Below, one piece after another: positions 4,748-40,060 of a DNA stretch of 64,000 nucleotides. The notes beneath the pieces are model-generated. The model ran no database searches. It was not told the DNA's origin and worked only from the letters and a program-made list of their open reading frames with translations. The DNA is from Escherichia coli (GTDB lineage Bacteria > Pseudomonadota > Gammaproteobacteria > Enterobacterales > Enterobacteriaceae): assembly GCF_024223415.1 (NCBI RefSeq), contig NZ_CP100500.1, one strand, 5' to 3'. A program made the position numbers and the translations under genes. Numbering within the stretch: position 1 is the first letter of the stretch; each line of letters starts with the position of its first letter.

Positions 4748-4750
4748 GCA

Positions 4751-15700: not shown

Positions 15701-17498
15701 GCAGAGTAGTGATGAATTTGACCATCTCTTGCTCAAAGGTCGTTTGCGCTTCTTTGGGCTTGTTTCGGCGTTCTAAGCTGAGTACCGCGTTGTGAATACG
15801 TCCTGCGACGGAAATAACGTGCGCCAGGTTATTTTCCTGTGTGATTAGCTTTACATGGCATGTTTCTTCAAGGCGAGTGTAGGCTTCATGTAGTTCATCA
15901 ATGATCACCGTAAAACGAATATTTTTCTGGCGAAAAGGACAATCTGGATTGCGTCTGAAGTGTTCGTCGCGAAGATAGGTAACCTGCCCGGTATGACCGG
16001 CTGCCGCAACGGTGCTAATCTGTGGATCTTTGGGAGTCAGCTTACCGCCAATCAGCAAGTCGAAACCTACGGACTCAAAACGCACACCTTCGCCTCGCTG
16101 ACGAGGCGCCAGTCGGTAAGTTGATGTGTCGAACTTATTCGTGGTCATTAATAGCACTGACGGGCGGTACTGGCAAACTTCGAAAGGCAATACCTGTTTG
16201 ATAAGCTCGAAATAGACTTCGTGTACGCTTATCTTAGGTTCAAGCTTTCCTGGTTTTCGTGCTGTCTCCGCGTTTTGCATTCGCTCTTGCCGCGCCTGGA
16301 GCCCGCGACGAATGTACTCTTTAATGGAAGCTTTTTCACTATCTGGTCCAAATAGTAATTTACAGGCTGACTCAATCGTATTGCGGATACTGTGACGGCA
16401 GTTTTTTAGCTGTTCTTCGAGAATTTCTCTTTCGTAGTTGGTATCCTGAGAACCGTATGTTGTCAGCTTTTTTAACTGCTCTTCACAGCGATCAATTTGT
16501 AAGACATGATAATTGAGCGAACGAATAGCGCCGCCGATATATTTGCTGCCTTTCGCCCCTTCGTACCACTGAATATAGCTGTCGCGGTTTTTCAGACCAG
16601 AGGCCCAGTCCATAAAGTCGAGGTCGGCAACATCCTTACGGGAGAGAACGCAAATGAACTCGCCGCTAGCGGCCAGAATTTTCTCTTTCTGACTGCTGTC
16701 CAGGTCGATTTGTGATTTTTGCGGTGACATGAATAGCAGGTTGGTAAAGCCACCTTCAGGAAACAGATCGTCTGACTTTTGGGTTTTGGCGAAGCGCTCC
16801 AGATATTCGACATACCCTTGGATCACGCCATAGCTTTTGCCGAACCCCGTGCCGTCGGAACTGAAGATGACCTCAGCGCCATCACGTTCATGCACGTGGT
16901 AAAGTTGAGAGACTTGGGCGCGACAGGCGTTAATCTCTTTAATCAGCGTTATGTCAGGAATTTGCCTAGAGATGAGATCTTGCAGATTATTATTGATATT
17001 TTTCTCTCCAACACGCTCACACTTGCGGTAACTATTGATGGTTATTTGGCCGCTGTCGATCAGAATCTTTTCCACCTGTATGGGGGCAAGATGCAAGGCT
17101 GTCGCGATTTCATTGATAGTATTGGACAGTGGTTCGTGTGGATTGCTAATCGTGAAGTGGTTTAGTGCTGCCGCAACGGTATCTGGATGCAATGCTTTTC
17201 TGAGGGTGGGAAAGGTGAGGCTGTAATCGTATAGCGCCAAATCATTGCTTATCAGGCAGCGAAACAGTTGTTTAGTGGGATCGCCACCAGGACGGCTGGC
17301 AAATCCCAAGATTTTTGCCTGTTCGAGGCGATAAAGCAATGCTGCGGCATCGCGGTCAGGTGAGTCAAATGCATCGTGGAGCTGCTGGCTAAATGGCATT
17401 GTGGCATTCAGCCGGTTATGGCTGACCAGCGCGGAAAAGAGCTGACGCACCAAGGTTAGCAGCTTACAATCTTCCTCTATAGTCCAGCTTTTTCTCAT
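12783..17498 (-). CDS. Large SF2-type helicase-like ATPase (~1571 aa from preferred start; ORF track start 17534) with unusually long inter-motif insertions
   Basis: Walker A DGTGFGKSYG, Walker B IIDELHE, motif III LSATSG, motif VI QAVGRVERR spread over ~930 aa; strong SD (AAGGGGAAGAAGA) before ATG at 17498, 11 nt after upstream stop. Confidence 0.6.
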   Translation of the reverse strand: MRKSWTIEEDCKLLTLVRQLFSALVSHNRLNATMPFSQQLHDAFDSPDRDAAALLYRLEQAKILGFASRPGGDPTKQLFRCLISNDLALYDYSLTFPTLRKALHPDTVAAALNHFTISNPHEPLSNTINEIATALHLAPIQVEKILIDSGQITINSYRKCERVGEKNINNNLQDLISRQIPDITLIKEINACRAQVSQLYHVHERDGAEVIFSSDGTGFGKSYGVIQGYVEYLERFAKTQKSDDLFPEGGFTNLLFMSPQKSQIDLDSSQKEKILAASGEFICVLSRKDVADLDFMDWASGLKNRDSYIQWYEGAKGSKYIGGAIRSLNYHVLQIDRCEEQLKKLTTYGSQDTNYEREILEEQLKNCRHSIRNTIESACKLLFGPDSEKASIKEYIRRGLQARQERMQNAETARKPGKLEPKISVHEVYFELIKQVLPFEVCQYRPSVLLMTTNKFDTSTYRLAPRQRGEGVRFESVGFDLLIGGKLTPKDPQISTVAAAGHTGQVTYLRDEHFRRNPDCPFRQKNIRFTVIIDELHEAYTRLEETCHVKLITQENNLAHVISVAGRIHNAVLSLERRNKPKEAQTTFEQEMVKFITTLRNLLAEKCELSPGTRLGSILEMFRDQLGAFEVNGDAAERIISITRNVFSFNPKMYVNEEGLKRIRMRNSEGDITRTELYYEVENDANDTNPTLHDLFQLVSVILAACSEITNRHFKRWVKNGGQDNSSSQNTPLGQFVDAANNVAGVVRHIFDRTTDKNLLIDHFYTYLQPKTVFTMTPIAELNYVNRGAERTIILAFEMDLVQELPEAMLLRLLTGTHNKVIGLSATSGFSHTKNGNFNRHFLAHYSRDLGYRVVEREKADIDTLKALRGLRASIRNVDFRVFDDKQLKLTDIYQNCEIYRRTYDNFFDALKKPLEYDLKNTYKRRQCQRELEALLLAAWEGKNSLILSLSGTFKRAFISAWRTHQTTWRQQYGMHSRCDEKTDNGKKHDQILTFTPFKGRHTVHLVFFDSPLANVEDIRQETYLQNSNTVLVFMSSYKSAGTGLNYFVKYHDGDINDINAPRLDVDFERLVLINSSFYSEVKDNSGNLNTLPNYVTVLKHYADDDITVHKLADFNVNFAHGENYRLLMAEHDMSLFKVVVQAVGRVERRDTLLKTEIFLPRDVFRNVAFQFAALSEDSGNEVVSESMSLLNHRLMEECEKLSQGQSFNNAEQRLTFEQAIVANGRRIDEIHKRVLKTDWINKVRAGNLDYLEICNLFRDPDSFTDPQRWLAKLQANPLYTANRQMQSVHDALFIDRQQGNQTILLCHKRGPDGLAHRDYSALSDFAGGAREYRPELTLFPQYRNDVDFTPGNLVGELIRECDNIQEKAFKKWVPNPRLVPLLKGNVGEYLFDKVLKSYGVTPLSDQQVFERLEPLVYEFFDRFIEVGDDLLCIDVKRWATQLDDLTRAEETLEKSDNKIRQIRNIASQKADTEGQKQLQTALAGRYERIRFIYLNVAYSQNPNNLMWQDNVDHTIHYLNLLQTDYQYYQPKNRESGRAQENSKLRMTLDINPMLLTLLGVEKLPTKGKVS

Positions 17499-17509
17499 TC
17501 TTCTTCCCC

Positions 17510-19708
17510 TTAATATAAATGCCCCTGCAACCACTCCGTCACGCGTTCAATATTAAAAGCACGTAATCCATATTCCTGCGTCAGCAACGTCTCGGGTAAA
17601 TACTCATCATATTTTTCGAGGCACTTTTCAACGATGCTTTCGGCAAGACGGGATTCGTAAGGTAGCCCTTCCTGAAGTGCGCTGAATAACGCTTGTTTAA
17701 CCTCCGAGACCGTAGTTTTTTCTACTTCAACCACACCAGCAAATGAGCCCGCCTTGAAACCGCGTTGGATAAGTAATGCCGACAACGTGTTTACGGTTTG
17801 ATCGCCTAGCCAGGGAAGAATGTAGACATGCTGTCTCTGCTGAATAAAACATTCCGAAGCCAGATTATTGTTGCGAAAACAGTGCAGCCCTTCATCAAAC
17901 AGGTTTTTGGCCGTGGTATCGGCAAAATCGGCCTTGCGATTGCCAACGGTGATGCGGTAGTCGCCTTCCCGATAAATAGTGAGCATTTCTTGGCGGACGA
18001 CATCATGAATGGACATCCCTTGTCCGCCAAATAACGGCGGCTGCCCACCCTTTGTCGCCTCGACATAAATAACTTTTTTATCACTATCGATATCGGTTAC
18101 CTTCCAGCGTCGACCGCCGAAAATAATGTGTTGATCAGGCATCAGTGGGGAATCAACGGGAATGGAGCCCAGTGTTTTGCTCCCCGCCACAATGCGAAAC
18201 TCTTCCGGCGTGCTGAACACGGCGTAGAAGGTGTATTGATTTACCTGACGTTCGCCCTCGACGCCCAGAACCAGTTCGCCGCTTGAGAGCTGGGTCAGAA
18301 ACTGGTGCTCCCCCATATGTTTCAATAACGTTTTGAAGTCATAGATCCGGACTTTCTGAAATGGCCCTTGCAGGCATAGCTGTGACCAGATCTGATCCGC
18401 ACGCACGCCTCCCCACTGCGCCACGATCGCCAGGATCTGATGGAACAGGGTGGAATAGTGCATCTGCCGGGTATCAGCTGGCTCAAACCATTTGTTGCCG
18501 ATAAGTAAGCGGATCATGGCCAGCGACTGAACAAGCTGAAGCCTGAGCTGGTCGACAATGCCTGATGTTGGCGTCAGTTCATGTTCGGCAATCAGCATTC
18601 TCAATACGGCAGGCGAGTCGCGCCGACCGGAGCGTCCCATTCGCTGACGCAGGCTGGCTACGGAATGGGGGGCGGTAACTTGCACAACGGAGCTGACTTT
18701 ACCGATGTCGATGCCAAGCTCTAACGTCATCGTACAGATGGCGGTGGTGGGTAAGTTGCCTTGTTGAAGCCTCTGTTCCAGCGTTTCACGCAGATCTCTG
18801 GACAGAGATCCGTGATGGGGAAAGAACTCATTGGGAACGATGCTCGCTTCACTGAGATCGCTAAGCGTGGCGGCAATGCTTTCGGTCCGTTTGCGACTAT
18901 TAGCGAACACCAGATGGGAATCACCACGACAGAGGCGAAAGATATCATGGCAGATTTGCGTCTCTGCCGACGGTGGAGATTGCTGGCCCGAGGTGGTCAG
19001 CGGTTCCAGATAACCTTTCACCTGTACTTTTAGCGTGGCGTGAGTCTGACTGTCGGTAATAATGTCACAGGGCAGACGTTGATTTGGCCGCAGAGATAAC
19101 GGCACCTGTTCCAGTTCCCCCAGCGTTGCGCTGAGTGCGACTCGGGGGACTGGATTGTTGATTCTTCCCAGCAGGTGATCGACTCGATTTAACAGAGAGA
19201 GAAGCTGCATACCCCGCTCAGAACCGATGAAAGCATGGAATTCATCAATGGCGATATATGCCAGTGGCGCGAAAGCCTGCTTTAACCATCCCGCATTGCG
19301 GATCAGCATCGCTTCCAGCGATTCCGGGGTGATAAGCAAAATACCGGCAGGATTCTTCTTTGCTTTCAGCTTTTTGCTCTGCGCAACATCACCATGCCAG
19401 GGCGTGACCGGCATCTCCAACGCATCACCGAGGTTTTCCAGCCTTCGATACTGATCGTTAATCAGGGCCTTAAGCGGGCTGATGTATAAAATGCCAAAGC
19501 CGCCCTGAATATCCGCAATGGCAGAACAGGCGGGCAGGAAAAACGCTTCTGTTTTACCTGCGGCAGTCGCGGCGCTGATCAGAACATCCCGATCGCCCGC
19601 TAATATCGGTGAAACGGATTTTTTTTGCAGTTCCCTGAGATCGGCCCATCCCTGCCGGTATATCCACTTCTGTATCCGTGGATCCAGCCGCTGGTATTCG
19701 TTCATCAT
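17510..19708 (-). CDS. DEAD/DEAH-box (Lhr-like) helicase; SngC-like
   Basis: Motif I AATAAGKTEA, motif II DEFH, SAT motif, motif VI RQRMGRSGRR; ATGA overlap with upstream ATPase gene. Confidence 0.65.
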   Translation of the reverse strand: MMNEYQRLDPRIQKWIYRQGWADLRELQKKSVSPILAGDRDVLISAATAAGKTEAFFLPACSAIADIQGGFGILYISPLKALINDQYRRLENLGDALEMPVTPWHGDVAQSKKLKAKKNPAGILLITPESLEAMLIRNAGWLKQAFAPLAYIAIDEFHAFIGSERGMQLLSLLNRVDHLLGRINNPVPRVALSATLGELEQVPLSLRPNQRLPCDIITDSQTHATLKVQVKGYLEPLTTSGQQSPPSAETQICHDIFRLCRGDSHLVFANSRKRTESIAATLSDLSEASIVPNEFFPHHGSLSRDLRETLEQRLQQGNLPTTAICTMTLELGIDIGKVSSVVQVTAPHSVASLRQRMGRSGRRDSPAVLRMLIAEHELTPTSGIVDQLRLQLVQSLAMIRLLIGNKWFEPADTRQMHYSTLFHQILAIVAQWGGVRADQIWSQLCLQGPFQKVRIYDFKTLLKHMGEHQFLTQLSSGELVLGVEGERQVNQYTFYAVFSTPEEFRIVAGSKTLGSIPVDSPLMPDQHIIFGGRRWKVTDIDSDKKVIYVEATKGGQPPLFGGQGMSIHDVVRQEMLTIYREGDYRITVGNRKADFADTTAKNLFDEGLHCFRNNNLASECFIQQRQHVYILPWLGDQTVNTLSALLIQRGFKAGSFAGVVEVEKTTVSEVKQALFSALQEGLPYESRLAESIVEKCLEKYDEYLPETLLTQEYGLRAFNIERVTEWLQGHLY

Positions 19709-21021
19709 AATCTGAAGTCGGCCAGACCGTCCTCATCGGCATCTTCTGCCGATGTTATTTCATCCATATCACTGGGTTTTTCTTCCGCGATCGCGACACC
19801 GGCGATTAACTGTGACCACTGAATGGATGGGTTTTGTTCCAGCACGGCCAGCATATCCAGGAAGGCTTTAATCGTGTTTCGTGGCGTACGGAAATAGGCA
19901 TCGCCAATAGTGTTGCTACAGTGGCGTAAAAATGCCGTCAGAGCATCATCAGGAACCAGATACTTATCCGCATCGCCGCCGGAATAAACGTGACGAAGGT
20001 TTTTCAACAGAATATAGAGTTCTTCCGGCGTCAGGCTGGCTAAGTGCAGGGAAGGGGACGAATAATCAATGACACCAGCCCGCTGAGCGAAGCTATTTTC
20101 CGCCAGTCGGGACTGGAGCGCTTCGTAGCTGTACAACCCCTTGCGCGGATCGAACAGGAATTCTGGCGTACCGCCAAGTAAAAAACCGATATATTCAGCC
20201 GTCCCTTGCAGGCAGTCATTCAGAATACGCAGTATCTGTTCATAGTTGGCAACGCGGGCCTGAGTGTTACTGAGCTTATACAGATTGACCATCTCATCCA
20301 GATTCACCAGCAGACCCGCGTATCCGGCCTGACGGACAAACAGGCTCATCAGCTTTAGCGAATCGTAGAAAGAGGCATCAGAAATAATGGTGCGCACACC
20401 CAGATCGTTACGGGCGTCGGTTTTCGTGGTGTATTCACCTCTTAGCCAGCGGATGGCATTTGATTTCAATGTCTCATTATCCTGCTCGTGGCCCTGCCAG
20501 TAACATTCAATGACTTTGGCGAAATCGTAACCGCCAACCATATCAGACAGGGCGGCGAGCTTTTGGTGAATAATCGTCGGAACTGACACATTTGTACTTT
20601 CTGCTTCTTTTCTGGCTTCCGTGATAAAGCGCTCAACCACGCTTAATAATGCGTTTCCATCCGGCTTATTTCGGGTGGATAGATTTTTCATTAGCTCGGA
20701 GTAGAGGTTACGCGCCTGCCCACCCGTCGCGTGGATGCGCCTGTCCGGGGATAAATCGGCGCTGATTGTCACCAGCTTTTTTTCTAGCGCAATTGAGCGC
20801 ACAACGCTTAAAAAGAATGTCTTACCTGAGCCATATTCCCCAATAATCAGCCGGAGTCCTGCGCCGCCATCAGCGATACGCTCAATATCCTGATACAGCG
20901 CTTTTATTTCGTTGACCCGGCCAACCTGAATGTGCTGAATACCAATTTTAGGCGTAACACCTGACTTCAGTGACTGAATAATAGCGTCTCTTTCTTTGAG
21001 ACGAATACGAATGCCAGACAT
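19705..21021 (-). CDS. P-loop ATPase (438 aa); SngB-like
   Basis: Walker A GEYGSGKTF, Walker B-like LLVNLDEM; 3 nt after stop of TerB-domain gene. Confidence 0.6.
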   Translation of the reverse strand: MSGIRIRLKERDAIIQSLKSGVTPKIGIQHIQVGRVNEIKALYQDIERIADGGAGLRLIIGEYGSGKTFFLSVVRSIALEKKLVTISADLSPDRRIHATGGQARNLYSELMKNLSTRNKPDGNALLSVVERFITEARKEAESTNVSVPTIIHQKLAALSDMVGGYDFAKVIECYWQGHEQDNETLKSNAIRWLRGEYTTKTDARNDLGVRTIISDASFYDSLKLMSLFVRQAGYAGLLVNLDEMVNLYKLSNTQARVANYEQILRILNDCLQGTAEYIGFLLGGTPEFLFDPRKGLYSYEALQSRLAENSFAQRAGVIDYSSPSLHLASLTPEELYILLKNLRHVYSGGDADKYLVPDDALTAFLRHCSNTIGDAYFRTPRNTIKAFLDMLAVLEQNPSIQWSQLIAGVAIAEEKPSDMDEITSAEDADEDGLADFRL

Positions 21022-21024
21022 AAA

Positions 21025-23352
21025 TTATCCTTTGAGTTCTTGTGCAATTTCCAGGTCAACGTAAATATCATCGTCATCATCAAGCACCGGGGCGTCAACC
21101 TGTTCGAAAGACCAGTCATTAATTGCTTCAATCGCGCCGCTTAGCATCAAATTAAACTGCTGGCATAGCTCAGCGACTTCGTTTCGCGCCCAGCGTTCTT
21201 TTTCCTGCAAACGTTGGTAAAGTTGATGATGTGCTTCATCAAGACCTGCGCCAGCGTGTGGCGGGATCTCCGCTGGGGATTCGTCTGCGGGTTCATCTTC
21301 GGTGAAGATGGTGTTCAGTAACTGGCGTACGTCCGTTGTGTCGGATTCATGACGGGCAAGGATCCGTTCATCAAGAGAAAACGCGCCGCTCGTCGCTGAT
21401 GGGGTTTGTAACGTAGCTGTCGGAGTTGTTTCTGCGGTTGACAGTCGGTGGATATCGCTGGTAACGGCACTGCTGTCCAGACCGAGGCTGGCGTAGATTT
21501 TTTCCAGTTGTTTGATTTCAGCCGGATCGATTTTTCCATCTGCGCAGGCGACGCTGATAATCACGTTGCCAATAGTGGATTTATCTTTATCGCTGAGTTG
21601 CTCAATTTTACCTTTCAGACCAGCCTGATTTGCAGGCGTATTGAGCCGCCAGGTGAGGTAGGCGTGCAGCGAACGTTTTTCTGTTGGCGACAGCGCATCG
21701 TTATGATTAATCGTTTTCTCCAGCGCGGCCTGTTCAGCAACATCCACGCGCTTGTCCATTTGTGCAATCATGGCACCCAACCGAAGCGCCACAGAGACTG
21801 ACGTAAATTCCGCCGACGGTACGTAGAATTCCGCATGCCCTTCAGGAAATAAAACAAGATGACCTTCTGGATCCGGTCTGACAAGGTGATAGCGCATATC
21901 CGGCGCAATGCCGTAGCCTGCTCGCCGGGCGAAATTTTGCATCAGCTCGGCTTCTTTCTTATTAATCTTATCCGGTACAGGCATACCCAGTCTGGCCCAG
22001 AAATCAGCCACTGTCGCCAGTCCTGAATGTTCACGGATTTTCTCATCTGCCCAGTGTTTAAATTCAGCAAATAGACGTTCTGCATCTTCGGTCAGTATTT
22101 CATCGGGAAGCAGCATGATGGCGGCGACATCACTTGGTGAGGCATCTTTTTTACCGAGATAGCGACTGTAGGCATCCAGCGCGTTGATACAGGATTCTGC
22201 AACAGAAATTAATTTCTGAACTGGGGCTTTTAAAACGCTGGGATCGGGAAGATCCATCTGTTTTTTTACCTGAAGTTCCCGAAGCGTACCACTGGCGGGG
22301 GTATAGCTTAAATACAACCGTGTTTTATTGGGTTTGACGACAATACCGTCACCGTATTTTTGAGTATAACGCTGTTTGAATAATGCGGAAAATTCAGCAT
22401 GACATCGACGGGCAGGCGTGCGCAGGGTGTAATCAGGAAAATAGTATATCCATGCCAGTGCCAGAGCGGCACAAATAGGTTGTCCTTTATCGACCACAGT
22501 CGCTAGATTTAATCTGAACAGTAATGAACTCCTCGATGAGAAATATTCGTTTTCGGTATATATAGAAAGCAACTTCGGTCGGAGAACGATCATCATTTCC
22601 AGCAACTGCGTTGCATAATGCCGGAAGGAACCGCTTGCCTGAAATACGGTTCTCAGGCGCGATATCTCTTCGAATAATGCTTTGAATTCATCGTCAGAAA
22701 TGGCTTCTTGTGTGCCATCGGCCAGTACGCGGCGTTCTAGACCGTAAAAATAGATAAAAACATAGCCAACGGGGCAGCTCGCATCGCTGCGATCGCTTGC
22801 CAGCCAGTCAAGATAGGCGCCACGGCAGCGAGGGGAGAGTGTGGCAAAGCTGGGCCAGTATCCCAGTGACTCATCATAATAATGCCGTGAACCAGGCTCG
22901 ATGGGAAAAGCGTCATTAACCAGCGAAGCGTCGGAGTCATCGTTATAAAGATATCCATATTCTCCTGATGAATGTGTTTTTAACCGCCCGCCGAAATAAA
23001 AATAACCGTGATTAATGACGACATTTTGAATGGTGATGCTTTCTCCCGGTTTGACCCATCGCGCTGGAGTGGTATTGCTACGGGCGGCGTTTTCTCGTGA
23101 CGGCTGGCGGCTGGTGCTGTATTCAACCGTCTGCCCGTTCACAAAAGTAAAGGTTGCCAGTTCGTCATCATCGGAGGCCTGAGAATGCATATTTGTCATG
23201 CTGTTATCTGGCTTATTGAGAGATTTCTGTCGAGATGAATGATTTATTTTGGTGATGATTTTGTTGTTTACTCTGGGGGGCGGCGATTTTTTCTTTTTGG
23301 AAAACAGAAGCCAGATAACCGCCAGCATAATAACAAATATCCAGAAGCCCAT
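21025..23352 (-). CDS. Membrane-anchored TerB-domain protein (775 aa); SngA-like
   Basis: N-terminal TM helix (GFWIFVIMLAVIWLLF) followed by lysine run; C-terminal segment VIISVACADGKIDPAEIKQLEKIYASLGLD resembles TerB-type motif. Confidence 0.55.
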   Translation of the reverse strand: MGFWIFVIMLAVIWLLFSKKKKSPPPRVNNKIITKINHSSRQKSLNKPDNSMTNMHSQASDDDELATFTFVNGQTVEYSTSRQPSRENAARSNTTPARWVKPGESITIQNVVINHGYFYFGGRLKTHSSGEYGYLYNDDSDASLVNDAFPIEPGSRHYYDESLGYWPSFATLSPRCRGAYLDWLASDRSDASCPVGYVFIYFYGLERRVLADGTQEAISDDEFKALFEEISRLRTVFQASGSFRHYATQLLEMMIVLRPKLLSIYTENEYFSSRSSLLFRLNLATVVDKGQPICAALALAWIYYFPDYTLRTPARRCHAEFSALFKQRYTQKYGDGIVVKPNKTRLYLSYTPASGTLRELQVKKQMDLPDPSVLKAPVQKLISVAESCINALDAYSRYLGKKDASPSDVAAIMLLPDEILTEDAERLFAEFKHWADEKIREHSGLATVADFWARLGMPVPDKINKKEAELMQNFARRAGYGIAPDMRYHLVRPDPEGHLVLFPEGHAEFYVPSAEFTSVSVALRLGAMIAQMDKRVDVAEQAALEKTINHNDALSPTEKRSLHAYLTWRLNTPANQAGLKGKIEQLSDKDKSTIGNVIISVACADGKIDPAEIKQLEKIYASLGLDSSAVTSDIHRLSTAETTPTATLQTPSATSGAFSLDERILARHESDTTDVRQLLNTIFTEDEPADESPAEIPPHAGAGLDEAHHQLYQRLQEKERWARNEVAELCQQFNLMLSGAIEAINDWSFEQVDAPVLDDDDDIYVDLEIAQELKG

Positions 23353-23535: not shown

Positions 23536-24603
23536 TTATACCTCTGAATCACGCATAAAACGATTGATTTCATCTTGCGCATGACGAAGACGATCGGCAA
23601 TGTCAGCAAATCTGTCAGGCTGATGAAAGAACATTCCCCCTTCCACCGCCGTTTGATGATCCCCGGCGATCGCTGCGAACCGTTCAGCATCGTCAGGCAA
23701 CAGTTGCAGGTTTCCGACAATCACCTGAGTAAAATCCACACCCGGCACAGACCAGCGACGTTGCTTCATCTCGACCACATTGCGCATGGCTTCCAGCGTT
23801 TCATAGGGGCTGGCAAAATGATTACTCAGCAGACAATCCACATCATACCAATGGCGTGCCAGTCGGGCCGGATTTGGCGCTTTGGTTTGCGTGCAGAACT
23901 GGTGCAGCGCCGTCAGCTTTTCCCAAAGAATATAACCGGTGTCATAAGCGTTTACGGTCGCGGTGGGTAACTGGAGTGTATCCATGCCTGCGATCCCGGA
24001 CAGATAGCTTACAACAGGCATCAGATCGGTTGGCTTGCCACGATTTCGTCCGCCAAATTCCAGCAGAATATGATCGCGCTGATAGGCCATACTGTCTTCT
24101 TTCACCCGTGGGAAATAGATATCGACTTTTTCGCCACCACTGTCGGGTTCCATTTTTGCTTCAAGGCCCGGAATTTCATAAGTCTGAAAGCGTTGGTTTA
24201 ACCGTTCTGCCAGCGCGTTTGTCCATTCTGTTAAGCGCTCTTGCTGCTGCTCTCTGAACCGGCGATTCTGGCTGTTATTTAGCGTGCTTTGCTCCCATGC
24301 CTGCTGTTCTTCCTCTTCTGAGTGGCCTGCCAGATCGGCCCAGTGAACAGAAAGATCGATATCTTCAGAAAAACGCTCAATCACGTTCCAGCATTTGCTT
24401 AACGCCGTTCCACCTTTAAACGCGACAGATAAACCTCCCAGCAGCTCCTCATTAAAAAGTAACCGAAGGATCTCCGTTACCCAGAGATCCTTTTCCAGAA
24501 AGCTGGCTCCCAGCCCGGAGGGATGCTGCTGCGCCGCGTAAGAGAGGATTTCCTGAAGCTCGCGACGTTGTGATGCGCTCCGGTAGTAATCAAAAATGTC
24601 CAT
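23536..24603 (-). CDS. AbiEii-family nucleotidyltransferase toxin (ORF track start 24642; ATG at 24603 overlaps antitoxin stop)
   Basis: FKGGTALSKCWNVIERFSEDIDLSV motif characteristic of AbiEii/DUF1814 nucleotidyltransferases; ATGA overlap with upstream gene. Confidence 0.78.
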   Translation of the reverse strand: MDIFDYYRSASQRRELQEILSYAAQQHPSGLGASFLEKDLWVTEILRLLFNEELLGGLSVAFKGGTALSKCWNVIERFSEDIDLSVHWADLAGHSEEEEQQAWEQSTLNNSQNRRFREQQQERLTEWTNALAERLNQRFQTYEIPGLEAKMEPDSGGEKVDIYFPRVKEDSMAYQRDHILLEFGGRNRGKPTDLMPVVSYLSGIAGMDTLQLPTATVNAYDTGYILWEKLTALHQFCTQTKAPNPARLARHWYDVDCLLSNHFASPYETLEAMRNVVEMKQRRWSVPGVDFTQVIVGNLQLLPDDAERFAAIAGDHQTAVEGGMFFHQPDRFADIADRLRHAQDEINRFMRDSEV

Positions 24604-25262
24604 CAGAGCGCCTTTTGCAACGTTATCAGCTGCGAGCGCCACGCGTGAAGCGCAGGCTCATTCATCAACTTTCCGGCAATCTGCCGTGCTTTAGCGGACG
24701 GGATGCTCAGCCGATGAAAAGCATTCTTCAGCGTTTCCAATGGGGTATGTTGCTGATCCAGACTCAGCAAACCGCGCATCAGCTCTCCTTCAGGCCGGTT
24801 CAGCCAACGTAACCGACTTGCTGATTTATGCTGGATCCGTACCCGCTCATTGCCGACGCGGAATTCTCGCGTAGGGCCGTTTGACCAGTAGATGCGTTTA
24901 ACTGGCGCCTGCGTTTGCAGCCCCAGCCGGTAAGCGGCTTCCAGCCCCTGAAGGGTGATTTTGTAACCACGCTCTTTTGCCCATGCGGCGGCAACGGCAT
25001 TGGCGCTGGCAACAACGTTAACAGAGGGGATGTTTTTCAACGGCTTTGGCCGGGAGTAGAAACCGCGTTCAACCCGGACCAGCAGGCCTTCTTTGACCAG
25101 ACGGCTCATTGCCTGTTGTACCGACGCACGGCTTCCCAGCGAGTAAAACCCGCTGATGGAAAAGGGGATGCCACGCTTCATGCGGTGAACCCGCTGGCGG
25201 GCCAGAGCGGCAACAGACATTGATTCTCCTGTACTGACGTTTTCATTGATATGTATTTTCAT
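24603..25262 (-). CDS. AbiEi-like antitoxin / transcriptional regulator (type IV TA)
   Basis: 219 aa immediately upstream of and overlapping AbiEii; N-terminal wHTH-like region ...SRLVKEGLLVRVERGFYSRP. Confidence 0.65.
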   Translation of the reverse strand: MKIHINENVSTGESMSVAALARQRVHRMKRGIPFSISGFYSLGSRASVQQAMSRLVKEGLLVRVERGFYSRPKPLKNIPSVNVVASANAVAAAWAKERGYKITLQGLEAAYRLGLQTQAPVKRIYWSNGPTREFRVGNERVRIQHKSASRLRWLNRPEGELMRGLLSLDQQHTPLETLKNAFHRLSIPSAKARQIAGKLMNEPALHAWRSQLITLQKAL

Positions 25263-25418
25263 TATATCCCTTGTGTAGCAAGGAGTCTAACCTAAAAAAT
25301 GTCAGTAATATTCATTCTATGACAATGTTTAAAATGGCAGATATCAGTGAGGTAGCTTGCTGTAGGAAATTCCGACGATAAAATACCCACATACAGCAGG
25401 CGGTGATAAGGATATAGC

Positions 25419-27614
25419 ATGAGCATTCTCTCCATCCACGGCGTTCGCAGTTATCAGGGCGAAAGGCCAGTGGAGTTCGACTTGAGTAAGTATGTCACTC
25501 TTATCTATGGACAAAACGGCTCAGGAAAATCAACCGTTTCTGGTTACTTTTATAAGCATGGTCGTCCAGATTACAGCCAGTGCAGCCTGCGACCTCCACT
25601 GGATATGAACTACCTGGTGTTTAATCAGGAGTATGTAGACGATATTTTCAGCCAACCTTCTCAGCCGGGCATTTTCACTTTAAATAGTGAAAATGCAGAA
25701 ATTAAAACTGAAATAGATGCTCTGGAAGCGGAGAGTAAAGTTTTGTTTGCCCGGCGTGATGCTTTGGACGTGCAAAAACGCGACGTTGAGGGCATGGAAG
25801 AAAGTATTAAAAATGGCTCCGCAAAACAGATTTATAGTTCTACCGCAGAAATCAGAAAAACAGATTTATGGGATTTGATGTCTGGAACTAAACAGACCGA
25901 CAAACTTTTTCAGACCATCCTTGAACACACTGAAGTCGAAGATACTTCGACGCAGGAATTAACCGAAGAACTACACCGACTTGAAGCCAGTAAAGGCAAC
26001 CCTTACGCTTTGCTCGAAGCATTGCCAGCATCCCCTTTGAATGACAATGATATTGCGCTATTGATGCAACCTCTTATTCCAGCAGGTGATAGCCGTCTTG
26101 CTGCCGCAATTAACCAATTGGGCAACATTGACTGGGTGAGGAATGGACAGCAGTGGCTGAGTGATGACATTTGCCCATTTTGTCAAACGCCGATAGATGC
26201 CCGGCAACTTCAACAGGAAATCACTGCCCTTTTTGATACCTCATGGGAAGCTGCGATGGACCAGTTGCGGGAACTTCAGGCGCGATATCAATTCTGGCAC
26301 GATAAACCCGAACATATGCGGCAGTTAATAAAAACGTGTCCGTTAGTTGATCAGGAACATCCTGTTTATCTCTATCTACTTGAACTGGAGCAGGCGTATC
26401 AAAGAAATAAATTGCATATCGATGAGAAATTGACATCACCCTCTGCGTCGATTGCTGTTGAGGATCTTTCTGCTCTGGCTGGCAATGTCTCTGTGCAGAT
26501 AGCCAGTATTAATACAATAATAAGCGAACATAACCGAAAGGCTGAAAATTATCAGACTGAACGGGTTAGACTGAAACAGAGACTACTCAGTCATATCCGA
26601 AAACTGGCTACCGATACGATAATTAACCATGATGAACAACTAGCAGAACTTGCTGAAAAATTGGCAAAATTAACGGTGTCTCGGGATGAAATTACGGCCC
26701 AGCTTGATACGCTGAACGCAATTATTCGCGGTAAATCCAGCCTGATCGTCAATACGCAGGAAACGATTGAACGTATTAATCACAGCTTGGATAGCCTTGG
26801 AATCACTGGATTCCGCATTGCTCCCTATGACGATCGGGATGATTATCGTCTGGTGAGGGAAGGTGAGAACAGCGATACGCCTGTTTTTAGTAGTCTGAGT
26901 GAAGGGGAAAAGACGCTGATTGCTTTTCTCTATTTTCTGGAGACTTGCACAGGGAGAAAAAGTCGTGATGACAATGACCAACGAAAACGTTTAATTGTCA
27001 TTGATGATCCTATATCCAGCCTGTCGCAAAACTATGTTTTTGAAATAGCATCGTTGATCCAGCATCAGGTTATACGTGCCAGAATTGGTGAGAAAGTGAT
27101 TATTCTGACGCACAGCCTGTTTTTCTTTCAGGAGTTACTGCTTTCTGCGGAACGGAAGAAAAGGGCAGCGGGTTCTTGCCCACCAGAATGGACGCTTTAT
27201 CGGGTATCCAAATCCTTACATAGTTCTGCTTCCCTTGTTTCCGAAAAAGAATTACTGAACGACTATCAGGCACTCTGGTATGTCTTACGCCACGCCCAAA
27301 AAGATGACATTGCCAGTGTGGTGATCCCAAATACGATGCGGCAAATCCTTGAATACTATTTTGGTTTTTCGGGGAAAAGTGAGACGCTTCACCGGGCGCT
27401 TGAAACACTGGCGAGCGGGCCTGAAGGTGAACCTGGTTTCCGTATATTTGCTCGTTATCTAAATCGACATTCTCACCAGGATGCCCGCAATATCTCTCTT
27501 CATGAGGGGGCTTCGGTTGAACGCTATCTTACCTGGTTTAAGAAAGTATTCGAGGCGGCAAAGGATGAAGAGCATTACACATCAATGATGGAAAAGACGA
27601 CACAAACGACCTGA
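25419..27614 (+). CDS. ABC-type (SMC/RecF-like) ATPase, candidate RloC/PrrC-like anticodon-nuclease family defence protein
   Basis: Walker A GQNGSGKST at N-terminus, Walker B/D-loop LIVIDDPISSLS and H-loop ILTHS ~500 aa later, CPFC (CxxC) in the intervening predicted coiled coil, ~170-aa C-terminal domain. Confidence 0.45.
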   Translation: MSILSIHGVRSYQGERPVEFDLSKYVTLIYGQNGSGKSTVSGYFYKHGRPDYSQCSLRPPLDMNYLVFNQEYVDDIFSQPSQPGIFTLNSENAEIKTEIDALEAESKVLFARRDALDVQKRDVEGMEESIKNGSAKQIYSSTAEIRKTDLWDLMSGTKQTDKLFQTILEHTEVEDTSTQELTEELHRLEASKGNPYALLEALPASPLNDNDIALLMQPLIPAGDSRLAAAINQLGNIDWVRNGQQWLSDDICPFCQTPIDARQLQQEITALFDTSWEAAMDQLRELQARYQFWHDKPEHMRQLIKTCPLVDQEHPVYLYLLELEQAYQRNKLHIDEKLTSPSASIAVEDLSALAGNVSVQIASINTIISEHNRKAENYQTERVRLKQRLLSHIRKLATDTIINHDEQLAELAEKLAKLTVSRDEITAQLDTLNAIIRGKSSLIVNTQETIERINHSLDSLGITGFRIAPYDDRDDYRLVREGENSDTPVFSSLSEGEKTLIAFLYFLETCTGRKSRDDNDQRKRLIVIDDPISSLSQNYVFEIASLIQHQVIRARIGEKVIILTHSLFFFQELLLSAERKKRAAGSCPPEWTLYRVSKSLHSSASLVSEKELLNDYQALWYVLRHAQKDDIASVVIPNTMRQILEYYFGFSGKSETLHRALETLASGPEGEPGFRIFARYLNRHSHQDARNISLHEGASVERYLTWFKKVFEAAKDEEHYTSMMEKTTQTT

Positions 27615-29132
27615 TTAACAACAGAAGAGGACCATCACCCCGGGATTAACCGTTAGCAGTTCGGCAAAGAGCGCATGTGCTGGCACACGTGCTCCCAGCG
27701 ACCAAAACGGAAACGCAGATACTGGTGAACCAGCACAGTTTTCTGTTTCATACCGGGCTCCTTTCTTTCGACGCCGACAAGCTGTCGGCGAGCCCCGTAC
27801 ACCTCGTACGAGCGTGACTATCGTGTAGAGGCTAAGGATCCCGGGGGATGGCTTCCGCTATCGTAGGCGATTTCATTTGATGATTCAATCTTTGCTTTGG
27901 ATAACAATTAATTGAGATGGTCGTATTTTAGTATTAGCACTGTATGTCTTAGCTATAGTGCTGCTGAAATGACCAATTCGGGAACCGTGATGGTTTCCTG
28001 GAAACTCTCTTGCTTATTTTACGATGCTGGCCGATTATCACAAAACGTTGCTTAAACGCTGATTGGATATGGTGCTTTGTGGCAGTCATTCGCTTGTCTG
28101 ACGTTGCCATGGCTTACATTTGATGTAGCCAATGTAGAAGCCGCTTGGTGAATTGTTCTATGACATGGTCTACTACTTCGTTGTGGAAAATGAAGATGCG
28201 GTACCGGGTATGTACCATTGATGGTGAGAGGCTTATCGACGAATGGACCGTACGATATTGCTTGGCTGGAAAGGTGTGTGAAGCATTGTAGATTTACATT
28301 CACAAAATCGCGAGAAAATCTACAAACAACTCTATTTCCAGAAAAATGAGTTTCCCCTTTCTGCGCCAGAAATAAAGGCGTAATCTCCCTCCTGCACTAT
28401 GTTGTCGTGGACAACTCCCTTGCTTCATGGTCTGCAAGAAGCCCCTGATTTATCAGGATGACCAGCCCTTTCTACCGGTACGACCTCCGCAATACCGGAA
28501 CGCGAAAGCGTTTGAGGCTAAGAGTACATACACATGAACGGCTCCATCGTCATCGCTTAACGGCAACAGCCTTCACCGGCTGAACGGCCTCTCTTTGCCG
28601 GAATTTTCCTGGCCCACTTATACCCTGCTGATAACCAGCGCCTTTTTACATGACGGGCTGCGGCCTGCATTGCCGAAGGCTTTGCTGCCGCGTGACCGTC
28701 ATCCTGCACCAGAGTGTTAATTTTCAGACCCTGCGCCAGACCAGGGCGTCAGTCGCTCACGCGCAGTGAGAGACTGACGCCCGCAGAAATTTCCATCTGC
28801 ACCAGTCATATCAACTGTTCCAGCCACAGGCGAGCTTCTGACGTCGCTTTTCAGCATTTATCTCAACCATTCATTCACAAAAGGAGAACATGAGCCAGTA
28901 CCGGAGGAGGACCACCAGGACGGTCCGGGGGATGACCAGCTCACGCTGGCGGCTGCTCTGAGAGCACAACCGATACCCCGCAAAACCTCAACAGCCGTCG
29001 CCCCGGCGCTCAGGTACTGCTCGCAGCCCCGACAAAAATCAGGGGCTATCGGCCTACGCGCCGGGGAAAGCTGTATCCGTTGTTTGTTGTGGTTTTGTGA
29101 AAATCAGGAGCGAGAGAAGAGGAAAACGTAAA

Positions 29133-30014
29133 ATGGGTATGCTGGAAAGAGAGATGAAAAACCTGGCGCGGCAGGCTGGCGGGTCGCACAAGACTGTCCA
29201 TGACCGTATCGCCATGGCAGGACGTTTCTGCGAACGCCTGATGGAACTGAACGTTCAGATACGCTATGTCCACCATTTAAAGGCGAAGCATATTGAGGCG
29301 TATATTCAGATGCGGCTGGCGCAGGGGATTCAGAAAAATACGCTGCATAACGAAACGGCGGCTATCCGTAAAATCCTGACGCAGGCCGGGCGCGAAAAGC
29401 TGGCGCAGAGTGAACGGATATCGAATAAATCGCTGGGGCTGGCTGGCGTATCCCGCAATGGTACGCGGAAAGCCATCACGCCGGAATATTATCAACAGAT
29501 GGCAGAGGCTGCCCGGCTGAAAGATGCGGGGCTGGCGGCGGCGCTGGAACTGACGCGGCTGATGGGGCTACGCTCTCAGGAGGCAGTACGCTGTTCCGGT
29601 TCGCTGAAAACCTGGCGCGAAGCACTGGAGAAAGGTGATACCCGGCTAACCGTGGTACTCGGTACCAAAGGTGGACGGCCCCGTGACACGATTATTCAGG
29701 ATACTGGCGCAGTTAAACAGGCGCTGGATAAGGCCATCGTGGTGGCAGAACGGCGCAACGGCAGGCTGATTGATGCGGCGAGCCTTAAACAGGCAATGAA
29801 ATACTGGCGCAACCAGACTTTGCGTATGGGGCTGACGGGCAAATACTCCCCGCACTCACTGCGCTACGCCTGGGCGCAGGACGATATCTGCCGGTATCTG
29901 GCGCAGGGGTTCAGCGAAAAAGAAGCGCTGGCGATGGTGGCAATGGACCTAGGGCATGGCGACGGGCGTGGTCGCTGGGTGAAGCAGGTGTATGCACGGA
30001 ATGATGAAGCGTGA
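29133..30014 (+). CDS. Small tyrosine recombinase-like protein (ORF track start 29097 is GTG)
   Basis: C-terminal catalytic-like residues: ...GLRSQE..., TVVLGTKGGRPRD, HSLRYAWAQ (HxLR), MDLGHGDGRGRWVKQVYAR (LGH...Y); SD-like gaggaaaa upstream of ATG 29133. Confidence 0.5.
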   Translation: MGMLEREMKNLARQAGGSHKTVHDRIAMAGRFCERLMELNVQIRYVHHLKAKHIEAYIQMRLAQGIQKNTLHNETAAIRKILTQAGREKLAQSERISNKSLGLAGVSRNGTRKAITPEYYQQMAEAARLKDAGLAAALELTRLMGLRSQEAVRCSGSLKTWREALEKGDTRLTVVLGTKGGRPRDTIIQDTGAVKQALDKAIVVAERRNGRLIDAASLKQAMKYWRNQTLRMGLTGKYSPHSLRYAWAQDDICRYLAQGFSEKEALAMVAMDLGHGDGRGRWVKQVYARNDEA

Positions 30015-30195: not shown

Positions 30196-31502
30196 TTAGC
30201 TGGCGCAGGCCGCCTGAATCTGCCTGTCATACCGATACGGCGGGATAAATTTCTGCCGACAGGCGTCGAGATAATCCGACCACCACTGCATCATCTGTGT
30301 GCGCTCGTCGAGGTGCTCCGCCTTGTGGATATACGCGGCACGAACGTGATTACGCTCCTGATGGCTCATTTGTCGCTCCACGGCGTCTTTTGACCAGCGC
30401 CCGGACTCGATCAGCGCACTACAGGCCATCGTGCGGAAACCGTGACCGCAAACATCTGCCTGTGTGTTGTAGCCCATAACCCGCAGTGCTTTGTTGATGG
30501 TGTTTTCGCTCATCGGCTTACGCGGATCGTGGTCGCCGGGAAACAGTAACTCACTACTGCCGGACAACAGTTTTAACTGTTTGAGTATTGTCACCGCCTG
30601 CGCTGACAACGGCACCAGATGCTGCATCTTCATCTTTGCGCCGCGATTTGAATAACGCACGCCCGGAATCGGCTCCCGCTCCGCCGGGATGGTCCACATT
30701 GCGCCATCCAGATTGATCTCCGTCCAGCGGGCAAAACGTAGCTCGCTGGAACGGATAAAGATCAGCAGATTAAGCTGTACCGCCAGACGGGTTAACAGCC
30801 TGCCGGAATAGCCTTCAATACGCTCCAGCATCTCCGGTATTTTCTCCAGCGGCAGGGCGGGGTAGTGGTTTTTGGGCGGCGGTGCGATAGCCCCGGTCAG
30901 ATCGTTCGCCGGATTGCTGTCGATTATCCCCTCCTGCACCGCGTAACGCATGATTGCCGTGGTGCGCTGCTGAATCCGTGCAGCGGTCTCCAGCGTACCT
31001 TTTCGTTCCGCCACCCGCAGCGGGATCAGCAGATCGGCAGTTTTCAAATCAGAGACCGGAATTTGCCGATCAGTGGAAAAACATGCAGCTCCAGCGAGCG
31101 CAGGACTTTGGCGGCATGGGCTTCATTCCAGCGGATATTGCCCGCTACCCACTTACGGGCGATATCTTCAAAGGTGTTGCCGCTTTTACGTGCAAACTTC
31201 TCCTGCTGTTTTTTCACGCCGGGATCGCTGCCTGCGCTCAATACCGAGCGGGCATCCTCGCGCAGCTTGCGGGCATTTGCCAGAGAAACGGCCGGGTAAG
31301 CACCAAACGCCAGCTTCTTCTCTTTACCGCCGAAGCGGTACTTGAGGTGCCAGAGTTTAGATCCGTTGGGCTTTATCAGCAGGTACAGACCCTGCGCATC
31401 GCTGAGTTTCCAGGATTTATCAAGCGGCTTTGCATTACGGATGGCGGTATCGGTGAGGGACATAGTGGGGCTCCATAGTTTATCGAACCGACGGGCCCCC
31501 AA
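30196..31502 (-). pseudogene. P4-type tyrosine integrase split by a frameshift near 31045-31060
   Basis: N-terminal ORF (31044..31502) ...LKYRFGGKEKKLAFGAYPAVSLANARKLR...VFPLIGK; C-terminal ORF (30196..31047) ...ADLLIPLRVAERKGTLETAARIQQR...HGFRTMACSALIESG...; the two pieces are in different frames. Confidence 0.8.
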
Positions 31503-31625
31503 TTAAGCCCCCAAAAACTATGGATGTCAAAAAATCTGGCAGTACCTGTTGGTACTCCAGACTCTTTGTAACTAACTGATTTTTTGATGTTTCAGGACTC
31601 ATAGAGACGCCATGAAACTAAATAG

Positions 31626-31647
31626 TGGTGCCGGACTCGGAATCGAA
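31626..31647 (-). repeat. 22-nt fragment matching the tRNA-Phe 3' end with one base deleted; second copy of the attachment-site repeat
   Basis: Reverse complement TTCGATTCCGAGTCCGG-CACCA; same orientation as the copy at 9120..9139; ~125 nt beyond the integrase start. Confidence 0.65.
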
Positions 31648-37189: not shown

Positions 37190-38074
37190 TCAGAACAGGT
37201 GATCCCACAGTGTGACCAGCAGGTGGATAATGCGGTCCCGGGTTTTGCGCAGAAGCTGTAACATCCAGGCCGGAAAACTGAAACGGGCAACGGCGTCGTC
37301 AAAACTTTTCCCGATGGTTTCACCAAAAGTCTGTTGTGCGTGTTTCCGGGCCTGTTCAGAGCGGTTTTCCCCCCGGATATGTGAATAAACCGCACTGGTT
37401 GCCTGTGGTGGCAGTGCGTGGATCATCAGCGACACAAACGCCGGAAGGTTCCAGCCGACAGGTGCGGCAACGGAGAGTACCGGAAATGATGAAGGGAACA
37501 GGGTTGCCACCCGGGCTGTCACCGTCGCCAGTGAGAGCGCCTGCTGACGGGACGGGCATTTTTCTGTGTCGTTCCATTCTTCAGCAGGAAACACGCGATC
37601 GGCATGGCTGAGAACAAACAGAAAACGCGAGGGATCTGCACCTTCATTCAGTAAAAACTGATGCATGGCAATATCAGCAGCATACGCACGTTCATCAGCC
37701 CGCAGGATCCAGATAATCAGATCCAGTTCGGGCAGTAACTGACTGTAAAGTGCCCGGTATTCCTGATCATGCTGTGGTGTTTCGCCAGTGCCGGGCAGAT
37801 CGACCAGCGTCATTCTTCGTTCACCGGGCTGAAAGGTAAGACGATGAGCCTGACGGGTGCAGCCGTTCAGCGGATGCGTGGCGCAGACACGGGACTGAAA
37901 AATGGCATTGCACAGGCTGCTTTTTCCGGCACCGGATTTACCCATAATGCCAATAACGGGTTCGTACTGAATGACGCTGCGAAGATGTTCAAGGATTTTC
38001 TGGCGAATTTCTTCAGGAAGAAAGGTCAGATGTGACTTTACGTGTGCGGAGAGGGAAGAATGGCTGAATGACAT
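37190..38074 (-). CDS. GTPase of the YeeP/YkfA/YfjP family (50S ribosome-binding GTPase-like)
   Basis: G1 motif GIMGKSGAGKSSL, DLPG switch region; first gene of the CP4-like module. Confidence 0.8.
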   Translation of the reverse strand: MSFSHSSLSAHVKSHLTFLPEEIRQKILEHLRSVIQYEPVIGIMGKSGAGKSSLCNAIFQSRVCATHPLNGCTRQAHRLTFQPGERRMTLVDLPGTGETPQHDQEYRALYSQLLPELDLIIWILRADERAYAADIAMHQFLLNEGADPSRFLFVLSHADRVFPAEEWNDTEKCPSRQQALSLATVTARVATLFPSSFPVLSVAAPVGWNLPAFVSLMIHALPPQATSAVYSHIRGENRSEQARKHAQQTFGETIGKSFDDAVARFSFPAWMLQLLRKTRDRIIHLLVTLWDHLF

Positions 38075-38174
38075 ACCGTTATCCTGTTGATTTCACTGAA
38101 CCGGATCACATTAATCCGGCCTATCAGTCAGGTAATATGGACGTGAAAATTTTTCCATTGACGGGAAGAAGAGT

Positions 38175-39323
38175 ATGGCTAAAAACAAAGGTATCTGTCG
38201 GAATAAAAAATGCAGCAATCCTGTTTCAGAATTTGATGAGGCAAATGCCCTGAGGTTATGTGATGATCATTATCAGTTATGGAAACGAAATAAAGAGAAC
38301 CGTCGGGTCAGGAATATTTGTCGTATAATCAGTAAATATGACAAAAGTCTGGACCGGGAGATATTTGACAGAGTAATAGATGCTGCAAGAAATCAAACGG
38401 GAAAGAGAATTGTTGAGGACGCAAAAATATTACATCAATTGCGCAATTCAAAGCAAGTAAGAAAAAGTCTTCATAATGGAGTACTCCGGTCACGGGAATG
38501 GCTCAATACACAGGAGTTACTGAGAAGAAAAAATATATCTGTTACAGGTGACTCATTTAAATCTTACATAAAGGATATTGTCAGATTATATTGCTATAAG
38601 TTTCTCTACAGCAGAGAATATCTTAATGAAAACGCATACAAAAAACAATATCAGAGAGTTATTAACCCCAGAGAATTTAATGTTCCGATACTTCAACTTG
38701 AAGTTGCATGGATCAATAATAATTGCCGTTCAAGTGATTCAAGCTCTGATATTATCATCCTTCCCAGGATGATAAGAAGAATGGTTGTATTTAATGATAC
38801 GAAGATAAATAAACAATTAGAGGAAATGTTGGGGGGGATAGCACGAAAAAAAGTCGCAGTAAGGAATAAAGGCGGTCTCTATACCAGAATAAAAAAAGAA
38901 AATGATTTTCGTTCTATGGATAGATTTATGGTGGAAATCGAAAATATCATAAGACCTGAAATATTTCCGACATCAATTTACCCGCCTTTTTCACTTTCAT
39001 TTATCGAGAGAGAATTGCCACTACTGAATCTGGCGCACTCACAGTACAAAAGAGCAATAAGTAAAAAAGTGGCGAATTCAATTTTTTATACTTTGCGAAA
39101 AACTCACGTGGCATTATGGCTGCATCTTGAAATGTTTGCTCTTGTGGCATTCATCAAACTGTATACAGGAAAAGGGTTTGAATTCATGAAAAACATGTGT
39201 GTATTTATAGATTATGATAAAGGGATAATAAAATCCACGCATGAAGAACTGCTGAGTGAAATTAAGTGTAACATTCAGTTGAATTTAAAGGTGAATCCTG
39301 ATAATTTTCCTGAATTAATATAA
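38175..39323 (+). CDS. Hypothetical lysine-rich protein in very AT-rich DNA; N-terminal Cys/His cluster
   Basis: 382-aa ORF, N-terminus MAKNKGICRNKKCSNP...LCDDHYQLW; SD-like ggaag upstream; codon usage clearly foreign. Confidence 0.5.
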   Translation: MAKNKGICRNKKCSNPVSEFDEANALRLCDDHYQLWKRNKENRRVRNICRIISKYDKSLDREIFDRVIDAARNQTGKRIVEDAKILHQLRNSKQVRKSLHNGVLRSREWLNTQELLRRKNISVTGDSFKSYIKDIVRLYCYKFLYSREYLNENAYKKQYQRVINPREFNVPILQLEVAWINNNCRSSDSSSDIIILPRMIRRMVVFNDTKINKQLEEMLGGIARKKVAVRNKGGLYTRIKKENDFRSMDRFMVEIENIIRPEIFPTSIYPPFSLSFIERELPLLNLAHSQYKRAISKKVANSIFYTLRKTHVALWLHLEMFALVAFIKLYTGKGFEFMKNMCVFIDYDKGIIKSTHEELLSEIKCNIQLNLKVNPDNFPELI

Positions 39324-39904: not shown

Positions 39905-40060
39905 ATACACCTTTTCCATTAGGTCCTTTTATGTTTTCATTAAGTCGTTTTGTATGTATTCCTCCAGTGATTCATTAGTGCCTGTTTACGCATTTACACA
40001 CTTTTCCCATTAATCTCCTTTAAATGTGTTTCATTACGCATTGCTGTACACATTTTTGAA
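39905..40060. repeat. Two imperfect direct copies of a ~55-60-bp AT-rich unit
   Basis: acaccttttccattaggtccttttatgttttcattaagtcgttttgtatgtattcc vs acacacttttcccattaatctcctttaaatgtgtttcattacgcattgctgtacacattttt. Confidence 0.4.

Follow-up and report, generated by a model that had tools for sequence, protein, structure and literature searches.

PrrC is an anticodon nuclease of about 400 amino acids that nicks 5' of the wobble base. The protein (EcoPrrC) fuses an ABC-type NTPase to a C-terminal nuclease with an Arg/Glu/His triad, has no coiled-coil/zinc-hook insert, and is always found within, and silenced by, a type I restriction-modification (R-M) locus (PMC3458546). RloC, as defined by Davidov & Kaufmann in 2008 (PMC2610378), combines ABC-ATPase motifs, a helical insert bearing CxxC, and a C-terminal nuclease motif, Arg-x3-Glu-x36-52-His, in which a Ser often precedes the His. 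The mechanism of the characterised RloC proteins has been described (PMC2610378, PMC3458546, PMC3874168); the DNA-dependent ATPase, the zinc-hook switch and the activation by double-strand breaks are known only for GkaRloC of Geobacillus kaustophilus and AbaRloC of Acinetobacter baylyi (PMC3458546, PMC3874168), which differ in their tRNA preference (PMC2610378, PMC3874168). RloC carries its own switch and thus spreads without an external silencer (PMC3458546). The literature that we searched contained no direct demonstration that an RloC protects against phage, and a 2025 paper states that RloC function 'remains unknown' (PMC12447246).

Other proteins share parts of this design. Rad50/SbcC likewise have an ABC head interrupted by helices that bear a CxxC zinc hook, and these are core repair genes whose products have much longer coiled coils, no RNase domain, and a separate nuclease (Mre11/SbcD). 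Lamassu LmuB, Septu PtuA, the retron I-A ATPase, PARIS AriA and OLD belong to systems that combine an ABC-ATPase sensor with a nuclease effector, several of the effectors being tRNases.

We analysed a gene at positions 25419..27614 of a 64,000-nucleotide stretch of Escherichia coli DNA (the window; contig NZ_CP100500.1). At a probability of roughly 85%, its product is an RloC-family anticodon nuclease, that is, a single-polypeptide, self-regulated, translation-disabling enzyme carried as stand-alone cargo of a defence island at the pheV tRNA gene. The gene is a further member of the RloC family known since 2008 and not a new kind of system. The family is already in PADLOC as the single-gene entry PDC-S06, where its status is that of a candidate only; this label is free of mechanism, and it is the RloC literature that supplies one.

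Family and predicted architecture

The reading frame (25419..27614, plus strand) starts with ATG, 6 nt downstream of a Shine-Dalgarno-like AAGGA, and encodes 731 residues (RefSeq WP_000025792.1, 'AAA family ATPase'), which align with homologues from residue 1. The Pfam AAA_13 model is matched from position 4 to its last, 713 (E 8.9e-104), and 827 representatives of 50%-identity clusters match at E<1e-30, nearly all of them 710-760 aa long and of the same architecture; the frame is therefore not a chance one. The PADLOC model PDLC04886 (PDC-S06) covers residues 2-726 (E 3.3e-242), while the PADLOC PrrC model is limited to residues 493-728 (E 3.9e-16). Among phage protein families, phrog_2801 matches over the full length (E 7.6e-156) and phrog_36021 over residues 613-728, in the C-terminal domain. 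Homologues in JGI, NCBI, UniProt and phage records bear the names 'wobble nucleotide-excising tRNase', 'anticodon nuclease' and 'translation-disabling ACNase'. None of the NCBIfam models reaches its own cut-off for this protein, which accounts for the generic RefSeq name. The sequence-only reading had proposed an RloC/PrrC-like ATPase of the AAA_15/AAA_21 type. The full-length AAA_13 and PDC-S06 matches and the PrrC match on the C-terminal third agree with the first part of this proposal; the Pfam family is AAA_13 and neither of the two named.

Translation of the window coordinates placed the 731-residue frame and every motif listed in that reading where it had put them. Conservation was assessed in an alignment of 141 sequences (the query and 140 full-length representatives of 50%-identity clusters) and in a second one of 22, and the defining motifs are invariant or nearly so in both. 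The counts that follow are from the larger alignment, and all features lie on the plus strand. In the Walker A motif GQNGSGKST (residues 31-39, 25509..25535), 140 of 141 sequences have G31, N33 and K37, and the remaining one has a gap there. The ABC signature LSEGEK (residues 493-498, 26895..26912) has S494, E495 and E497 throughout (141/141 each), as does the Walker B/D-loop RLIVIDDPISSLS (residues 524-536, 26988..27026; core VIDDPISSLS) for D529, D530, P531 and S534. The switch histidine of the H-loop, H565 in LTH (27105..27113), is equally invariant (141/141). The CxxC zinc-hook motif C252-P-F-C255 (26172..26183) retains C252, P253 and C255 in all 141 sequences and F254 in 137, and W239, which lies ahead of the hook, is found in every sequence (141/141).

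The C-terminal domain (residues ~607-731, 27237..27611) is predicted to be an anticodon nuclease of the HEPN type. Its putative catalytic motif reads R641-x3-E645-x40-S685-H686. The first half, R641-Q-I-L-E645 (27339..27353), agrees with the R-x3-E part of the triad described for RloC and PrrC (PMC2610378); R641 is invariant (141/141), and position 645 is Glu in 133 sequences and Asp in the other 8. S685 and the predicted catalytic histidine H686 are kept in 138 and 140 of the 141, respectively, so the anticodon-nuclease residues whose conservation was in question are indeed conserved. The R/H-rich patch ARYLNRHSHQDARNISLHE (residues 678-696, 27450..27506) had been proposed as a possible nuclease site. 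This holds for the Ser-His pair and for R679-YLNRHS-H686 (27453..27476), which lie inside the patch, but the Arg-x3-Glu half (R641, E645) is some 35 residues upstream of it. R679-x6-H686 satisfies the HEPN Rx4-6H motif (R679 in 135 of 141 sequences, R683 in 126), and PrrC and RloC have been assigned to the HEPN superfamily (PMC3710099); motif and published assignment together suggest that the domain is a HEPN member.

All three RloC-defining features, namely the ABC-ATPase motifs, the CxxC-bearing helical insert and Arg-x3-Glu-x36-52-His, are present in the 731-residue protein. By published residue positions, the order K37/C252/D529/R641/E645/H686 parallels K44/C291/D572/R692/E696/H737 of GkaRloC, in which K44 and D572 are the Walker residues (PMC3458546). 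The spacing of 40 between E645 and H686 equals that between E696 and H737 of GkaRloC (PMC2610378); in PrrC it is 31. PrrC shares the ATPase-nuclease fusion, the homologous C-terminal domain and the Arg/Glu/His triad, but its compact architecture is not matched by a protein of 731 residues with a 352-residue insert, nor does the gene have the R-M neighbour that PrrC always has. A link to the original RloC list is a protein of Yersinia pseudotuberculosis IP31758, 51% identical over 708 residues; Table S1 of PMC2610378 has the 728-aa IP31758 protein under #52 of its RloC orthologues, and #51 is a prophage protein of E. coli APEC O1. The database entry for the IP31758 protein has 710 aa because it begins at query residue 20. 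A full-length Campylobacter homologue (29% identity, E 3e-83), in which all motifs align, is encoded within a type I R-M locus, flanked by hsdS and hsdR, the 'restriction-linked orf' context from which the RloC family took its name. A search for GkaRloC with the lettering machine-read from Fig. S1 in the supplement of PMC2610378, an unreliable reading, gave no match at E<=1e-10.

The full-length AF2 model (pLDDT 89.7) predicts a beta-rich head made of residues 3-68 and 465-606, split by a helical, coiled-coil-type insert of 352 residues (89-440, 25683..26738). The insert is modelled with an outgoing helix (89-141), shorter helices, a CPFC hairpin and long returning helices (351-440), CPFC being placed close to the midpoint, in a short inter-helical beta-hairpin. 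Residues 142-350 around the hook are predicted as many short helices and not as a plain antiparallel coiled coil; the geometry of the hook may, for this reason, differ from that of Rad50. The C-terminal domain, of some 125 residues, is modelled as all-helical (pLDDT 89.5). The closest solved folds in Foldseek were Rad50 and SMC, Lamassu LmuB, Septu PtuA and retron ATPases, in each case over the ABC head only, with Rad50/SbcC as the best structural matches (E 7e-09). Sequence and profile searches found no RloC or PrrC structure in the PDB, the full-length queries giving Rad50/SMC N-termini only, and the profile of the C-terminal domain had no significant match there. Sensors of the LmuB, PtuA, retron I-A, AriA and OLD type are weak matches in both sequence and fold; their effectors are separate or of the TOPRIM/HNH kind, whereas the predicted effector here is a fused HEPN-type domain with no partner gene. 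Sequence and model together, then, show an ABC head interrupted by some 350 helical residues with the invariant CPFC, and behind it a helical C-terminal domain, about 125 residues long, that contains the catalytic residues known from RloC and PrrC.

Within the RloC family, this protein falls into a short clade of about 730 residues with the motif 'CPFCQ', and both biochemically studied enzymes are long forms, GkaRloC with 804 and AbaRloC with 826 residues, that is, 70-95 residues longer. This clade could respond to another trigger or cut another RNA target than the long enzymes do, for example by sensing a phage protein or a replication intermediate where the long enzymes sense host double-strand breaks, or by cleaving other tRNAs or mRNA. 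The bundle of short helices around the hook, with its invariant W239, is consistent with such a difference, as are the insert differing more than any other part between the E. coli alleles and the tRNA preferences of GkaRloC and AbaRloC having already diverged (PMC2610378, PMC3874168). An E. coli PDC-S06 protein is also among the high-scoring ESM-DefenseFinder proteins, as a possible true positive predicted by PADLOC; this mention may mean that DefenseFinder misses the protein. Against a different trigger or target, the catalytic residues and the Glu-to-His spacing are identical to those of GkaRloC, the original RloC list (PMC2610378) already included forms of 702-743 aa, and there is no sign of another sensor domain in the sequence. 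On balance we regard such a divergence as possible but doubtful. A tentative and somewhat less probable extension is that the short 'CPFCQ' clade constitutes a distinct sensor, in which the roughly 200 residues around W239 and CPFC may read a trigger other than double-strand breaks, and that its study could yield the first direct demonstration of phage protection by an RloC. The gene is native to E. coli, and such a demonstration might for that reason be feasible with defined phages and escape mutants.

Island setting, distribution and selection

Window positions 7000-31647 are 99.95% identical to the pheV (tRNA-Phe) island of E. coli strain KV7. The order in KV7 is tRNA-Phe, a frameshifted integrase gene, an integrase-domain gene, a 1.5-kb ORF-poor stretch and the rloC-type gene, followed by AbiEi/AbiEii, Shango SngA/B/C, two large hypothetical genes and an IS3. 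A search of the ORF-poor stretch, which lies downstream of the rloC-type gene, for structured RNAs and hidden genes found only an EFASI RNA beside the integrase-domain gene. The first 321 nt 3' of the stop codon are common to the other variant of the island, and homology breaks beyond them. In the window, AbiEi (24603..25262, minus strand) and AbiEii (23536..24642, minus strand) are divergent from the rloC-type gene, as had been noted, across a 156-bp intergenic region (25263..25418). No strong plus-strand sigma-70 promoter is predicted in this region, where the only promoter-like match is on the minus strand, on the abiEi side. Within 18 kb on either side of 25419-27614 there are no hsd genes, the neighbours being AbiEi/AbiEii, Shango and integrase genes.

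Of 5426 complete E. coli genomes, 31 carry the gene, on the chromosome in every case. Twenty carriers have it at >=99.9% identity, and the other 11 share the island but with an allele at 89%; AbiE and Shango adjoin both alleles. Elsewhere, orthologues and homologues at 38-85% identity stand alone among unrelated neighbours: on Enterobacteriaceae plasmids, in a Pectobacterium ICE, and between transposases in Pseudomonas. The closer orthologues (72-85% identity) have a TacAT-like pair as neighbour in Dickeya, are flanked by metabolic genes in Pragia, and belong to an integrase-bearing island beside smpB in Providencia. In none of these plasmid, Pectobacterium, Pseudomonas, Dickeya, Pragia and Providencia settings is AbiE or Shango near. 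Genes of 261-262 aa lie convergent with the homologues in Pectobacterium and Pseudomonas and were considered as a conserved downstream partner; they are mutually unrelated and missing from the window, and this candidate was rejected. The gene thus moves as a stand-alone unit, as RloC genes on mobile DNA usually do, and this distribution agrees with the published view that RloC brings its own switch. With orthologues found on their own in mobile elements that are unrelated to one another, the gene requires no partner, and its proximity to AbiE is incidental. The absence of an adjacent partner, claimed earlier for the window, extends across the orthologue settings. The term 'orphan' is apt in that the gene stands alone, but this is the normal state of RloC, which has an internal switch and is rarely beside R-M genes (PMC3458546).

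The rloC-type gene might still form one module with the divergent AbiEi/AbiEii toxin-antitoxin pair or with the neighbouring Shango, given the 156-bp divergent spacer to abiEi and the retention of AbiE and Shango beside both the 100% and the 89% allele. Both alleles, however, are in the same pheV island, so that the linkage reflects common island ancestry; AbiE and Shango are each complete alone; and neither accompanies the 72-85% orthologues or the distant plasmid and ICE forms. A module of this kind is very improbable, and we rejected a coupling on the ground that close orthologues are without such neighbours.

The gene might also be a decaying, non-functional passenger. Some strains carry broken copies, interrupted by IS1 in one (GPEC1446) and split into two ORFs in two others, the island integrase is frameshifted, and no strong promoter is predicted upstream. 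Between the two E. coli alleles, however, dN/dS is 0.136 overall at a dS of 0.40; it is at its minimum, 0.043, over the nuclease domain and peaks at 0.17-0.19 in the insert, which holds most of the amino-acid differences. The rloC-type gene is under purifying selection. The frame is intact, all catalytic residues are present, identity is 99.9-100% across 20 genomes, and low expression is expected for RloC genes (PMC2610378). Decay is accordingly a highly unlikely account of this copy.

Finally, a housekeeping or repair ATPase of the Rad50/SbcC/RecN type, an SMC-like protein acting on DNA with no RNase role, is scarcely credible and effectively refuted: the N-terminal head resembles Rad50/SMC in sequence and fold, and the 'SbcC-like' phrog_77 matches in part (E 8e-18), but NCBIfam Rad50, MukB, RecF and SMC models score 15-23 bits against cut-offs of 172-1087 (Rad50, 21 against 1087), no SbcD/Mre11-type gene lies near 25419-27614, the gene is confined to those 31 of 5426 genomes and a tRNA-linked island, and the conserved PrrC-homologous C-terminal domain is missing from Rad50 and SbcC (PMC2610378). 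Best homology to a housekeeping SbcC, RecN or Rad50 protein, which would have spoken against the sequence-only reading, is thus not what was found.

Predicted function and significance

As an RloC-family anticodon nuclease, the gene product probably stops translation on sensing phage or DNA damage, judging from its characterised relatives. By analogy with the Geobacillus and Acinetobacter enzymes, the Rad50-like part would be an internal switch. In GkaRloC and AbaRloC the zinc-hook joints hold the nuclease silent, and DNA-end binding and ATP hydrolysis turn it on upon DNA breaks; the same may apply here. The active nuclease would be expected to cleave selected tRNAs (those for Lys, Glu or Gln in the enzymes studied) both 5' and 3' of the wobble nucleotide, a loss that phage tRNA repair enzymes could be expected to find hard to reverse. 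Translation would then halt, the infected or genotoxically stressed cell would stall, and the spread of the phage would be limited.

That RloC is a tRNase and excises the wobble nucleotide has been known since 2008, while its natural trigger and anti-phage role are mostly inferred; the enzymes studied so far are two long forms from non-model hosts, and the structure of the nuclease domain is unsolved. An intact, E. coli-native allele under purifying selection, in a defence island beside AbiE and Shango, would be a convenient model for these questions. It would lend itself to work on phage protection, on the trigger, on which tRNAs are cut, and on the means by which phages may respond, phage tRNAs and repair enzymes among them. 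For the annotation of the gene, 'AAA family ATPase' gives way to a specific predicted function.

Immediate surroundings of rloC

The predicted RloC-type anticodon nuclease gene rloC (window 25419-27614, plus strand) shares a spacer with an AbiEi (DUF6088)/AbiEii nucleotidyltransferase toxin-antitoxin pair located on the minus strand at window 23536-25262. This common spacer contains a strong promoter-like site, TAGACT-17-TATAAT. The longest open reading frames (ORFs) of AbiEi and AbiEii overlap by 40 nt, whereas in the RefSeq annotation the two genes are directly adjacent. On its other side, rloC is followed by an ORF-poor stretch of 1.3 kb (window 27615-28890). Over its first 321 nt this stretch shares 97% identity with the variant of the island in strain RM14723, after which the homology breaks and RM14723 has instead a gene for a 156-aa hypothetical protein and a small HTH gene. 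The rloC gene itself is less conserved than these adjoining 321 nt, with 89% identity between the two variants.

A homologue of RloC is also found on one Enterobacteriaceae plasmid (locus L004), where a CBASS-like SMODS and S_4TM pair (L004 coordinates 3694-5625) lies immediately upstream of it. The adjacency of this pair to the RloC homologue points to a small hotspot of defence genes next to the integrase of that plasmid.

The integrase end of the island

An EFASI RNA (Rfam RF02957) was matched over the full length of the model at window 28890-29023 on the plus strand (112.7 bits, E 1.5e-23), just upstream of an integrase-domain ORF (window 29097-30014). The P4-type tyrosine integrase on the minus strand (window 30196-31502) is split over two ORFs, and its copy in the matching pheV island of strain KV7 is frameshifted according to RefSeq. 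The match to the KV7 island stops at window 31647, inside tRNA-Phe (31625-31647); ARAGORN found no tRNA in the whole window. Because the identity to KV7 ends within tRNA-Phe and ARAGORN returned no tRNA, a partial tRNA-Phe repeat seems to stand here, with a second inserted element after it. Two elements in this arrangement would form a tandem island at the pheV locus. Part of the second insertion, window 38001-41000, is markedly AT-rich (GC 0.34-0.39, compared to approximately 0.50 elsewhere) and is likely to be separately acquired DNA.

Shango and the two ORFs beyond it

PADLOC identified a complete Shango system on the minus strand at window 17510-23352 (E 5e-97 to 2e-273), consisting of the TerB-domain protein SngA (775 aa), the ATPase SngB (438 aa) and the helicase SngC (732 aa). 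Directly downstream of sngC in the same pheV island are two co-directional ORFs of 1583 aa (window 12783-17534, minus strand) and 743 aa (window 10555-12786, minus strand), each named "hypothetical protein" by RefSeq. Neither protein was matched by PADLOC or NCBIfam, and Pfam gave no domain in the 743-aa protein. The two ORFs may represent an uncharacterised defence pair.
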